The notes beneath the pieces were generated by a model. That model was not told where the DNA came from, made no database searches, and saw only the letters and a list, made by a program, of their open reading frames with translations. 64,000 nucleotides of DNA from a virus (taxonomy: Duplodnaviria; Heunggongvirae; Uroviricota; Caudoviricetes), in the IMG/VR virus record IMGVR_UViG_3300037453_000152, one strand, 5' to 3'. Of this stretch, positions 1-56,754 are shown in pieces. Each line of letters starts with the position of its first letter. Position 1 is the first letter of the stretch. The position numbers were made by a program, and so were the translations under genes.

Positions 1-1801
1 TTACGCCATTAATTGAAATGGCCTATTTAGCAATAGACGGTTTCATTGATTTTACTCCATCAATATCAGAGCTACCTGTGGCGGCAGCTATATAAACTTT
101 GCTTCCAGAACCGGTAATCGTTGGAGTTATAGTTGATGCAGTAGAAATATCTTCGGCGTTTGCTGCTACAACACCATTGGTGCCACCCGCAGTTGCTTTA
201 CCCTTAACACTGCCATCTGTGCCTGTTCCGGTAACAGTAACATAATAAGAAGTTGCTGAATTACTGGTAACCATGCCTGTTGCAGCCGCTGAAACAGCAA
301 CGCTTGGCGCGTTTAAATCAACAACAGAACCAGTAATAGTATTTGATGCTACTGGAATATAATAGGTTGAACCAGTTTTTTCTGTAGTCGCGGCCGACGC
401 GGTAATCTAAGAATCTGACCCAATATAACCCGCTGTCCCAACAGTCTTTGTAATATCAAGCGTTGTCGCAGGGGCAGTTGCTTTTGCGGCAACATAAAAT
501 CCAGTAGATGGTGCAGATGTTGAAGCCACTGCACTACTAACATTTCTTTCCCCTCCTGTTGCTCTCGCAATCGTTGGAGAAGTAGCCTATTTGCTAGCAG
601 TAACTGATACCGCAGCTTCGGTCATGTCGGCCGTTGCCGCTGCAGCATAGTAGCCTGCGGCCGCAGTTGCTGTCTTACCATTAAAAGTAATTCCGGTTCC
701 GGTGGCTACAGAAGCGGTTAATGTAACTGTTGCATTGCCTGCGGTGCCACTAGAAATATAACCAGCAGTAGTAACATTAGGAGTTACAGAAATTGTTTTA
801 GTTAAAGTTAAAGTATTCGTTCCAGTAGAAACGGTTGCGGAAGAACCGCTTATTGAACTTGGAGAAGTTACAGAACCGTTTGGAACTGCGCTAATCGTAT
901 AATAACCACCAGTTGCATTATACCCAGGCGGAATATTAATATATCGTGTAGAAGTGCTGCGCCCGATGGTCGCCTTAGAGGTATAACCTGAAGTTGCGCT
1001 AGAAGCAGTAGAAGTTGGTAAGGTAATTGTTGGAATATTACCAGTAATAACTCCACCATCTTTATCGTAAGCGACATAGCCAGAAAGCATTTCGCTAGAA
1101 GATGCAACATAAGGATATAGAGTTGTATTCCAATCTGGGACTAATTTTGCTAAACTAATTTTTACATTTCCAGTATAACCAGAATTTATATATAAATAAT
1201 CTCCAGAAACAAGCATTGGAGCGGTACTAGAAATATCTGTATATGAAGTGCCATTAGTGCCGGTATTAGCAAAAGTGGCTAAACCAGTATTACCAACCTC
1301 TGTTCCAGCCGGCAAATAACCAGCCGTTCCAATAGTGGTAACACCATTAGAAGTTGAGAATGTTGCTTTTGGAATGTATATTGTCTATCCAGTAGTGTCC
1401 GCTGTAACAGATACAGTCTGCGCCGAGCCGGCCGCAGTTGATGAGATCCAACCGGCAGTAGTAACTGAGTAAGATGGAGTATAACTACCTGCGGTAGTAG
1501 TGGCTGTTGCTTGAATACCCCAGTAATCTGTGCCTGCGGTTTTACCTGTAGTATTTGTGATTGTATTAATACTATTTAAATTTGTTAATACTGCGGTGGC
1601 GGAGCCCGCCGACGCGGTTCCTCCAATACTTCCGCTAACGGTGGGGATAAATATGTTAAGTTCCATATTTCTATCTAATAGTTTTCCAGCCGTAGCAAAA
1701 GTTTTTGAAATAGGATTGCTACTTTTATCAGCAATATAATTTATTTGCCATTTTTCACTTCCGGTCGTTTCAACTTTTTGAATTGTAATATCGTTTGGCA
1801 T
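1..1801 (-). CDS. Ser/Thr/Ala/Gly-rich tail fibre-like protein, about 600 aa, 3' end runs off the window (code 15)
   Basis: ORF fragments 1385-1801, 587-1315 and 23-274 are in one frame and separated only by TAG. Repeated (V/T)TTAG(W/Y)IS-type motifs. ATG follows GGAGG. Confidence 0.7.
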
Positions 1802-1812
1802 ATTATCCCTCC

Positions 1813-4095
1813 TTACGCAATAGTTTCACCGTTATAAATTGGGATATTAACATTATCGCTTCCATCAAAAACATAAGAACCGATTGTAATTGAATGATTT
1901 ACCTTATCTGCTGTTGCAGCATTACCAGATAATGTAGCTTTTATTGTAGCTGGTAATTTTAAAACAACGTCTGCAGAACCATCAGCACTAACAGTGGAAC
2001 TAGTATTTGTAGCATCACTATCAGAAATACTAATATTGCGAGAAGTGCCCCATTTTGCAGTAGTAATATTTGCTGTACCATCAAAATTAGTACCGTTAAT
2101 TTGACGAGCGGTGTATAACTAATCAGCTCTAGCATTCTCTGAGTGTGTACATTCTGCATCTGCTGTAATTTCATCTGTTATTAATGTATAGTCAATCTAT
2201 GATATTGAGTTTCGTGAAATGTTATCTAATGGAGTGATTTCATAAAAAACATTATTGGCTGCATTTCCTGCAAAATATACATCAATATAAAATTTAGAAG
2301 TGTCATAATGAACCGCTCGAAGTTTAGTAATCCATCCAACAAAACTAGATCTACCAATCTATGAAATTGATGTATTATTATAAGAGTGCGATACTAAAAA
2401 TGTTACAGGTGATGGTTTTTTATTAGTATATAAACCATAAAAAGTAATTAAAAAAGAACTACTGTATCTTGTGCAATCTAAAATACGATACCAGCCTTCA
2501 GCGCTTAAACTTTTTGTTCCAACAAGTCTAGTCTTATAAACATCATCTACAACTTTAATTTTATTTAAATCTGTTTCTCTTTGAATTGACTCTGGTGCAG
2601 TTACACTTGCGCTAACTGCACAATTAATTCTAGGACTACTATACTAATTACAAAAAATATTAAAAGTTGTATATCGTGCTTTTCTAGTAATTTTAAAATA
2701 AATATAATTTTGATTATCTGATTCGCGCACAATTAACATTGAAATACCTTTAATAGCAGAATTAGAATCATTAATATCTGTATATGCACCAGAAATAACA
2801 CTATTAGTAATTGGGCTATCTCCACTTGTAGTTACATATCTATAATAAAAACTAACAGGAATAATATAAGTTGATAAAGTTGATAACTAGCTACTTGGTG
2901 CATAATCACCCATTCTTAAAGTTCCTAAAATATTTTTATAAATATCTGTCGATGAAGAAGAAGGAATTTGTATATTTGTTTTTACATAAATATATTGAGT
3001 GACATCTGGATCACTAGATGTATAATAATAAATTTCTTTTGTCTATAAAGAATCTGTTGACTATAATATTCCATTGCTATCTAAATAAACTGGTTCTGTG
3101 GTTGAACCAGCACCGGCTAGTGGTCCAGTAGCAAGCCAACCATCAGCATCTGGTAAAGTATGAAATCTATAGTCAGTACTCTAGTTAGGCGTAATATACG
3201 CTACACCACCACTATTAGAAGTTTTATCATAAAGAGCAATTCTACCATAACGATTATTCTAATCACCGAGTACTAATGTTTCTGCTCCTTTACCCGTGTC
3301 TTCTGTTAAACTAAAATGAGCATATAGCGCTGGAGAAATCTCATTTTCTCCAGAATAATAAGCGATTGGTTTATTCTATCCACTGGATTTAGCATTAATA
3401 ACATAATTTGTATAAGCATTAGAACCAAGACCCTCAATATTTGTCTAAGCAATAGTCCAATCGCCTGCTATAACAGTAGAACCAGTTGAAGGGCCGTCAT
3501 TAACAGCAATAATTAAATCTCCAATTTCGCAATATGTTCCATCTACATAGGAACCTGAAGTAACAACTCTATATGTCCAACCAGCAGAATATCCATTTGT
3601 AGGCAAACTAGCAATAGATGCATTTCTTGGTGAAGATGTATTACCAATAGTGCCTTTAAATACCATTGCATCATTTGCGGCAAAACCAGAAGAAATAGCA
3701 TTAGAAACAAATTCTGTAGTAGCTAATTTTGTGCTTGAGTCTCCAGCCATTGGAGTTAGTGCAGTTGGACTTTGAACAAAATTAGCTGCGCCAGTCACCG
3801 TAAGAGTGCCAATAGTTGCATTGTCAATCGTGGATTGATTATGCAAACTTGTATTACCAACAACATTTAAGGTTCCAGCAATATTAAAATTATCTGCTCT
3901 ATCAGCCTTATCAGCATTTAGCGCAATTCTATTAGTGCCAACAACGGCATTTGTAGTTCCATCGCCGCTAATATCAATATAAAATTTACCTTCATCTGTA
4001 GTAAAATAAGCAAAACCTTCAGTGGCTTTTTGAGTTGGAGTACCATTTTTTCCAAGGTCGCTAGAATTACCTTTAAAGATTTTAAATAAAGCCAT
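1813..4095 (-). CDS. Tail fibre / receptor-binding protein, 760 aa (code 15)
   Basis: Reads through TAG at 3445 to TAA at 1813. Carries a MVFKGTIG..LPT..GWTY..GDLIIA domain and fibre motifs TARQINGTNFDG and TLSGNAATA. Confidence 0.7.
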
Positions 4096-55647: not shown

Positions 55648-55689
55648 AATTTTTACCTCCTTATATTTAATAAAAATACTTAAATATAA

Positions 55690-56754
55690 TTATATTCTTT
55701 CGTCCAAAGGCAACTTCTTATTACGGCAAGCTTTACAAATACTATAAAAGCCATCTTTGCTTGTTTTATTTTTACTAAAATATTTATTATGTGCTAATTT
55801 AATTTTTCCGCATTTACTACATCTTTTATATTTTCCTTGTTCAACATTAGAATAATACCATTGAAGGTAGTCATCTTCTGCGGCCGACGCAATTAATTTT
55901 GGTATCTTATTGCGCCAAAGTGCTGAAATATATTCAACACTATATTTAATTCCAAAATTTACCTGTAGCATTTGCTAAATATCCACATTCTATAGTCCAT
56001 CAATCTTTGCTTCAATAATATACTAATACAAAGGATAATTTTTTAGTGCCTTGTCGCAAACCACTTCAAAGTCATAAAGCAAATACCACATATCATCTGT
56101 AAATCTTCCCCAACTATCTTCCTTAATTTTTGAATAATTACATAAAATCGCGGAGCAGACAGCTGGATTCATTAATGACACTCCTTCTGGGATTGGAAAA
56201 CCATCTTCATCAAAATCTTTAGTTAAGTCATCTAAGGGAATAAATAATGTTGAATGAGTTAATTTATTAAATACAATTGGTTTTCTATACGCGTTTTTAA
56301 TAACGTATTGGTCTTTGCGCATTTCAATTAATGCTTTTTTAATAACAAAGGCGTCTTTCCCTTCGGTGACTTTTAGTTTTGCTTCCCAGCACTCTATGGC
56401 TGCGCGCAGTTGCCGCAGGCACTCAATATCTTCTAAATCTTTTTTTGTTATTGTTACTTTTGGTTGAAATATAGTCTGTTTATTGTTTGTTATAATATTA
56501 TAAATTCCATCTTCGCCATTCTCTAACTGCGCTACTAATCCTTCAAAAGAAGTTTCTCTTTTATTTACTGTAGCCATTCTATTATCTGTTAATATCTTTT
56601 TTTCTTTTTTCTCTTGTTTCTCCATGCAAAAAATTAAATAATCTGTTAAAACTTCTAAATACTTCTCTCCTGGATCAGGATTTTGTTCTAAAATCTTTTT
56701 TACTAGTTCATTTCTCTCTTCGGGAGTGTCTAAAGTGTAATCTAATTTTATCAA
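55690..56754 (-). CDS. Putative DNA-binding regulator (HTH-like segment plus C-terminal Cys4 Zn finger), 354 aa (code 15)
   Basis: Fragments 56023-56754 and 55690-55971 are in frame, joined across three TAGs. CSKCG..CKAC motif. Confidence 0.6.

Follow-up and report, generated by a model that had tools for sequence, protein, structure and literature searches.

What does TAG mean in a block of phage genes that the standard code can read only in pieces? This question is raised by a 64,000-nucleotide (nt) stretch of DNA, here called the window, taken from the IMG/VR virus record IMGVR_UViG_3300037453_000152; positions are those of the window unless a genome position, that is, a position in the record, is named. 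Window 1-63697 corresponds to bases 64001-127697 of the 127,697-bp record. IMG/VR labels the record 'provirus' and CheckV puts its completeness at 77%, which implies a genome of ~165 kb with ~23% of it missing. The final 303 bases of the window (63698-64000), G+C-rich at the end, lie off the phage contig and are to be ignored. The source is a large uncultured gut or rumen phage, and the window is its virion-building half, with a minus-strand morphogenesis module recognised by PHROG matches. Taken together, the results make it very likely that the window covers the late half of the genome of a large siphophage-like phage, probably lytic, whose late genes read TAG as glutamine (Gln) and stop only at TAA or TGA, and whose suppressor tRNA(CUA) is probably encoded in the missing part of the genome.

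TAG is a sense codon in the late genes

With translation table 11 (the standard code), positions 1-56754 yield only fragments broken at TAG, as a preliminary description of this DNA had noted; the longest open reading frame (ORF) is 381 amino acids (aa). Once TAG is allowed as a sense codon, 2-56754 is tiled by ORFs on the minus strand, the longest of 2,764 aa. The approximate count of 33 genes given in that description proved exact: 33 genes with 18,461 codons cover 97.8% of the interval, and 308 in-frame TAG codons are spread over 28 of them, the other five having none. No in-frame TAA or TGA occurs in the 18,461 codons, compared with ~1,503 expected from the rate of these stops in the two remaining reading frames of these genes. 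The terminal codon of the 32 late genes that are complete is TAA (28 genes) or TGA (4 genes), as claimed, and the gene that runs off the left edge of the window ends in TAA at genome 63414. The proposed comparison of coding density under the two readings gave an ORF coverage per 4-kb bin of 0.06-0.57 with table 11 and of 0.87-1.00 with TAG as sense. As a control, TGA was treated as sense, which left ORF coverage unchanged, while treating TAA as sense brought smaller and uneven gains; TAG as sense is thus the best fit.

The base 3′ of TAG is distributed as it is after CAA and CAG (p = 0.36), and the TAG sites are evenly distributed along the genes. Because there is neither a 3′ context preference nor a clustering of sites, TAG behaves as an ordinary codon and not as a programmed read-through site. 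If TAG is included among the Gln codons, Gln accounts for 4.2% of codons, up from 2.6%. The consequence for annotation is considerable: under table 11, 28 of the 33 late genes fall into fragments, in line with the warning that standard annotation would lose or split most of them. The terminase, portal, tape measure and fibre genes are among those that would be lost or split, and table 15 restores them.

TAG aligns with glutamine

The main test gene was that of the portal, which carries 17 TAG codons. In an alignment with 120 full-length database homologues (53-68% identity), Gln occupies 51.5% of the cells opposite TAG, compared with a Gln background of 4.8% and with 60% opposite the genuine Gln codons of the query; 5 of the 17 TAG columns are Gln in at least 117 of the 120 homologues. 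The closest of these homologues, at 68% identity, are encoded on 145-177-kb ENA contigs. Such a result could be circular if the database proteins had themselves been translated with table 15, and this was tested with the DNA of 80 related IMG/VR loci. These form two clean groups, one with exactly 0 and the other with 0.5-2.1 in-frame stops per 100 aligned residues. In the 22 relatives without an internal portal TAG, CAA or CAG is found in 55% of the cells facing the 17 portal TAGs; the Gln result is therefore not circular.

The same preference was found when 14 window genes were aligned with 24 standard-code loci. Gln fills 57.2% of the 1,279 cells opposite TAG, with glutamate (Glu) at 6.5% and serine (Ser) at 5.9%, and true Gln codons (CAA/CAG) score 44.7%. 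In a cluster vote, which gives each cluster of relatives one vote per position, Gln wins 34 of 62 TAG positions and 77 of 152 true Gln positions, compared with 17 of 412 Glu and 13 of 357 lysine (Lys) positions in the controls; Glu wins 4 of the 62 TAG positions. Alignment of the terminase-like and portal genes to homologues had been suggested as a check, and a Gln preference opposite TAG is present in both: for the terminase-like gene, Gln is found in 141 of 189 cells from standard-code relatives. In those relatives that keep the standard code, TAG is a real stop in 2-6 of the ~20-25 genes per locus. TAG thus aligns with Gln and behaves, position by position, like a true Gln codon.

The amino acid had originally been read from a pair of paralogous domains within the window. 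The motif pair is exact, with the TAG at 5790-5792 facing a CAG in ORF 47035-47382, and the two domains align over 78 aa with 48.7% identity (E 2.6e-18). This internal evidence is real, in that both TAGs face Gln, but thin, since the pair offers two sites; over all paralogue pairs in the genome, Gln stands opposite TAG in 8 of 29 cells. The assignment itself is upheld by independent standard-code homologues, through the portal, the 14 genes and the clustered votes.

Two other explanations of the in-frame TAG codons were weighed. The 'provirus' label of the record would suit a decaying prophage full of pseudogenes, or real stops that are passed by programmed, context-dependent read-through. Decay, however, should scatter all three stops, yet TAA and TGA are absent in frame where ~1,500 would be expected, and the TAG sites are kept as Gln or TAG in dozens of relatives. 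Nor is there a context signal 3′ of TAG, and with 308 sites and up to 72 per gene, read-through of low efficiency would leave no full-length protein. Contradicted by the stop counts, the conservation of TAG and the absent context signal, decay and read-through were both rejected, and we give them practically no credence. It is also highly improbable that TAG is read here as Glu, as it appears to be in a sister clade. About 40 related IMG/VR loci (in the ranges L066-L070 and L128-L170) have TAG opposite Glu and form one clade of the portal tree, and Glu and Gln codons are each one base away from TAG. In the window, however, the 6.5% Glu in cells opposite TAG stands against 57.2% Gln, and the 4 positions won by Glu against 34 of the 62 won by Gln. 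The window moreover falls in a strongly supported seven-member clade of TAG=Gln and standard-code phages, far from the Glu clade. We therefore retain Gln as the amino acid read at TAG.

Genes of the late block

The late block and its main genes are as follows (basis of the assignment in brackets).

2-56754, minus strand: late block of 33 contiguous TAG-sense genes with 308 in-frame TAG, continuing left to genome 54,639
55690-56754, minus strand: first gene of the block, 'sigma factor'-like, 3 TAG (PHROG 5767, E 7.9e-51)
52684-54441, minus strand: large terminase-like gene, 8 TAG (PHROG)
52315-52671, minus strand: HNH/homing endonuclease gene between terminase and portal, 2 TAG (PHROG)
50693-52294, minus strand: portal gene, 17 TAG (PHROG)
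48592-49317, minus strand: TAG-free gene upstream of the capsid gene, scaffold-like (position)
47424-48569, minus strand: major capsid protein with HK97 fold, 381 aa, no TAG (model and PDB matches)
47035-47382, minus strand: TAG-free ORF with the paralogous domain that has CAG opposite TAG 5790-5792 (paralogue alignment)
46369-46980, minus strand: 203-aa gene of the TAG-poor set (codon counts)
41940-43055, minus strand: virion structural protein, 2 TAG (PHROG 2729)
31943-40237, minus strand: tape measure protein gene, 2,764 codons, 72 TAG (PHROG)
27262-31812, minus strand: gene of unknown family encoding 1,516 aa, 41 TAG (ORF)
4944-7610, minus strand: gene for an 888-aa protein, residues 565-641 of which are paralogous to ORF 47035-47382, with TAG 5790-5792 (paralogue alignment)
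1813-4095, minus strand: tail-fibre-like gene, 11 TAG (matches)
2-1801 and on to genome 63414, minus strand: fibre-like late gene (TAG-sense ORF)

The product of 47424-48569 was modelled from 28 homologues with a predicted local distance difference test (pLDDT) score of 70.7, and the model matched HK97-fold capsids and encapsulins, with 344 PDB chains at E <= 0.001. Because of these matches, this gene is assigned, on the strength of the model, as that of the major capsid protein. The structural protein encoded at 41940-43055 is probably the tail tube, judged by its position, and tail and fibre-like proteins are encoded to the left of the tape measure gene (PHROG). A segment of 109-113 aa in the fibre-like gene 2-1801 recurs with 74-77% identity in a gene at the extreme left of the genome (genome 4126-5400), as if the two genes shared a domain or had exchanged one.

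The first gene of the block encodes a product with a helix-turn-helix and a Cys-rich C-terminal end. Its 'sigma factor' label was not confirmed by Pfam (no match at E <= 1), by a PDB sequence match or by Foldseek (no match at E <= 0.001). With VIA-align, the Z scores against helix-turn-helix portions of sigma factors and a small terminase were 6.6-8.1, values that are within noise for helical models. Homologues of this gene carry 1-5 TAG in Gln relatives and 8-13 in Glu relatives.

Recoding is concentrated in, but not confined to, the late genes

The recoded minus-strand block starts at genome 54,639, 9.4 kb left of the window. The statement that the whole module is recoded stands for 28 of the 33 late genes but not for the rest, five genes being free of TAG and the capsid block being significantly TAG-poor. 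The concentration of recoding in late genes, on the other hand, was borne out. In ordinary late genes TAG makes up 41.6% of Gln-type codons, compared with 0% in the early cassettes (Fisher p = 6e-11 versus late genes) and 0.7% in a core replisome set of gyrase, ligase, DnaB, PolIII alpha and NrdD (p = 1e-29). The genes for GyrB, GyrA, NAD-ligase, DnaB, PolIII alpha and NrdD, which lie in the left half of the genome, have 0-1 TAG each. To the right of the late block the strand changes.

56872-63697, plus strand: recoding boundary, with ~14 small early genes and nine promoters of the TTGACA-N17-TATAAT type, plus one at 56813

Internal TAG is absent from all of these ~14 early genes, but TAG is the terminal codon of three of them (61343, 61816 and 62426), the next TAA or TGA being 9-12 codons beyond. 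The core replication genes are thus nearly, and the early cassette genes wholly, free of internal TAG, and these genes could therefore be translated by an uninfected host that uses the standard code. Outside the late block, recoding extends to a RecJ-like nuclease (7 TAG), a superfamily 1 (SF1) helicase (10 TAG) and two GIY-YIG nucleases (8 and 6 TAG). Because some genes of DNA metabolism and the sigma-like gene are recoded, the boundary is not simply one between early and late. Along the early array (56813-63697, plus strand), repeated motifs of 20-58 nt and palindromes lie between the genes, and a near-consensus sigma-70-type promoter precedes each gene.

A suppressor tRNA is probably encoded outside the contig

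We propose that TAG would be decoded by a phage-encoded tRNA(CUA) that lies outside the contig and is charged with Gln by a host enzyme. Such a tRNA would outcompete release factor 1 at TAG, and full-length products of the 28 TAG-bearing late genes would be made only after it had accumulated. The preliminary description had recommended a search of the rest of the genome for a CUA-anticodon tRNA, a glutaminyl-tRNA synthetase (GlnRS) or a release factor; the search came back empty for all three in the record. By domain search, no release-factor domain was found in the record or in the related genomes G001-G003 and G005, and no catalytic domain of the GlnRS or glutamyl-tRNA synthetase (GluRS) type in the record, G001-G003 or G012. 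Five recoded relatives that are 97-100% complete (G001, G002, G003, G016 and G018; 161-198 kb), however, each have exactly one tRNA(CUA) among many tRNAs (21-35 where counted), so that five of the six near-complete TAG=Gln relatives carry this tRNA. The complete standard-code relative G005 has 26 tRNAs, none with anticodon CUA. A collinear standard-code relative, G004 (locus L120), has the same early promoter array, with 23 promoters and embedded tRNA genes. These begin ~6.7 kb into its array, and the present contig stops 4.3 kb into its own. Because five of six relatives carry tRNA(CUA) and the contig ends before the position of the tRNA genes in G004, the suppressor was probably cut off and, by analogy, probably lies in the ~23% of the genome that is absent from the contig.

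Several observations weigh against this reading. Neither ARAGORN nor Infernal detected a tRNA in the 77%-complete record of 127.7 kb, and the suppressor is thus something that we infer and do not see. Of the tRNA matches (E <= 1e-6) in G015, a TAG=Gln relative of 96% completeness, none has anticodon CUA. A position like that in G004, within the early array, would mean early expression of the tRNA, and this weakens a strict 'late switch'. Furthermore, the sigma-like first late gene, RecJ and the helicase need suppression too; the first of these is itself recoded, so that its product, whatever its role, could not be made before suppression.

Some of these observations would also fit a host that itself reads TAG as sense, in which case the phage would follow the host code and have no need of its own suppressor; the record indeed has no tRNA, release factor or synthetase. 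A host-wide sense code, however, would give no reason for the avoidance of internal TAG by the 14 early genes and the core replisome, and three early genes end in TAG. That five of the six near-complete TAG=Gln relatives have their own tRNA(CUA) also speaks against it, as does the use of TAG as a true stop by the closest relatives (L003-L005), which points to standard-code hosts. Reading of TAG as Gln is not known from any bacterium. A recoded host is therefore very unlikely in our view, and suppression by a phage-encoded tRNA(CUA) is the explanation that we prefer.

The suppressor tRNAs of the relatives that were compared are the following.

L113, 3229-3317, minus strand: suppressor tRNA of a Gln relative
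L118, 1284-1373, minus strand: suppressor tRNA of a Gln relative
L116, 1952-2026, plus strand: suppressor tRNA of a Gln relative
L212, 4237-4310, minus strand: suppressor tRNA of a Gln relative
L213, 4456-4529, minus strand: suppressor tRNA of a Gln relative
L204, 3032-3104, minus strand: suppressor tRNA of the Glu clade
L207, 5092-5168, minus strand: suppressor tRNA of the Glu clade

In all five Gln suppressors examined, positions 1 and 72 are unpaired and position 73 is G, and in both Glu suppressors 1-72 is paired. These seven tRNAs suggest that the acceptor end may be linked to the amino acid inserted. Two of the five Gln suppressors are 89-90 nt long and of class-II build, their long variable arm resembling that of Ser, leucine (Leu) or tyrosine (Tyr) tRNAs; alignments for the genomes of these two give TAG = Gln. 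A BLAST search with the G001 suppressor tRNA found no match in five other relatives, and overall sequence similarity between suppressors and other phage tRNAs gave no origin for the suppressors. The tRNA arrays of three relatives also contain a ROOL RNA (RF03087; L113 5692-6316, L204 5545-6139 and L207 8888-9484, all on the minus strand), and one relative has a transfer-messenger RNA (tmRNA) gene (L113 4708-5009, minus strand). Neither RNA was found in the window, which has no Rfam family match.

TAG is almost avoided in the capsid and tube-like genes

The capsid gene, its two neighbours, the 46369-46980 gene and the tube-like gene have a combined TAG share of 6.5% (p = 4e-7). In ~45 TAG=Gln relatives, TAG accounts for 1-4% of Gln codons in the capsid/tube set versus 25-53% in neighbouring genes, and across relatives it makes up 1% of the Gln-type codons of the tube-like gene. 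The genes that avoid TAG are probably those most highly expressed, whose products would be needed in the greatest numbers. That these probably abundant virion proteins almost avoid the reassigned codon throughout the clade suggests that decoding of TAG by suppression is costly. We propose that TAG would be decoded less efficiently than normal codons, and that selection would purge it from the proteins of highest copy number. The capsid gene is nearly free of TAG in the TAG=Glu clade as well.

The relatives use several codes

On a portal tree of 131 distinct sequences, the strongly supported clade of seven that holds the window contains, besides it, three TAG=Gln and three standard-code relatives. 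The ~40 loci in which TAG aligns with Glu, brought up by a further scan that started from a relative more remote from the window, are monophyletic on this tree (support 98). In this subclade, TAG alternates with Glu encoded by GAA or GAG and falls on columns that are Glu in 114-119 of 120 outgroup sequences, and its two near-complete genomes have one tRNA(CUA) each. The Glu clade and the window belong to the same phage family by portal (41-43% identity) and share the same architecture, but TAG aligns with Glu there and with Gln here. Our literature search found no paper reporting that TAG is read as Glu in phages, which is not proof of absence. Other lineages are recoded at TGA, with 6-22 in-frame TGA per locus, mostly aligned to tryptophan (Trp). 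Members of the two groups are listed here.

L066, L068-L070, L128-L159, L161, L163, L169 and L170 (IMG/VR): TAG=Glu clade
L177, L183, L184, L187, L189, L190, L192, L193, L196 and L198: TGA=Trp relatives

On the portal tree, the TGA=Trp lineages arise at least three times among standard-code relatives, and at least seven code changes are required in all. We tentatively put forward, as a possibility that falls somewhat short of even chances, that a single family (portal identity of at least 40%) has undergone at least seven changes among the standard code, TAG=Gln, TAG=Glu and TGA=Trp, that the residue inserted may be set by the acceptor end of the suppressor, and that the window sits on the Gln branch with nearest relatives that use TAG as a stop. 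The differences in code between closest relatives make the family well suited to a study of how codes switch.

Comparison with known recoded phages

Recoding of TAG to Gln in late genes is itself an already known phage habit, as the preliminary description had stated, and the present phage is a further well-documented example. Crass-like (crAss-like) and Lak phages are reported to use code 15 (TAG to Gln), concentrated in late genes, with validation by metaproteomics (PMC9523058). The reassignment is the same in those phages, which are of unrelated lineages and have Bacteroidota hosts; it is backed by peptides there and by sequence comparison here.

Borges et al. (bioRxiv 10.1101/2021.08.26.457843) described gut and rumen phages with TAG=Gln structural genes and replication genes largely in the standard code, phage-encoded suppressor tRNAs, and different codes within one clade. 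They also defined a large 'Agate' clade and reported release factor 2 (RF2) in two TAG-recoded Agate phages. The present phage resembles the phages of that study in its TAG=Gln structural genes, its largely standard replication genes, its large genome and its origin in animal-gut material, and its relatives likewise mix codes (standard, TAG-sense and TGA=Trp). The resemblance to Agate consists of genome size, mixed codes and habitat only, and, in contrast to those two Agate phages, no RF2 is found here or in the complete relatives G001-G003 and G005. A further difference is that part of the present family reads TAG as Glu, an amino acid that is never mentioned in the preprint.

A second gut phage for comparison is phAss-1 (~136 kb; OQ749652), of the proposed genus Phassvirus (PMC10607447). 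Its TerL, portal, tape measure and fibre genes, together with part of its DNA-processing genes, use TAG as Gln, and it has many tRNAs including Sup-CTA, three suppressor genes in all, and no dedicated synthetase; its standard-code relatives infect Enterococcus and Enterocloster (PMC10607447). Membership of the present phage in Phassvirus was considered and rejected: members of that genus share 80-86% nucleotide identity (PMC10607447), and the match here is at the protein level only, the two phages being distantly related, with portals 34.7% identical across 89% of the query. They also differ in that phAss-1 has three suppressor genes and the relatives of the present phage one each. The kinds of gene in which TAG stands for Gln are, however, similar in the two phages.

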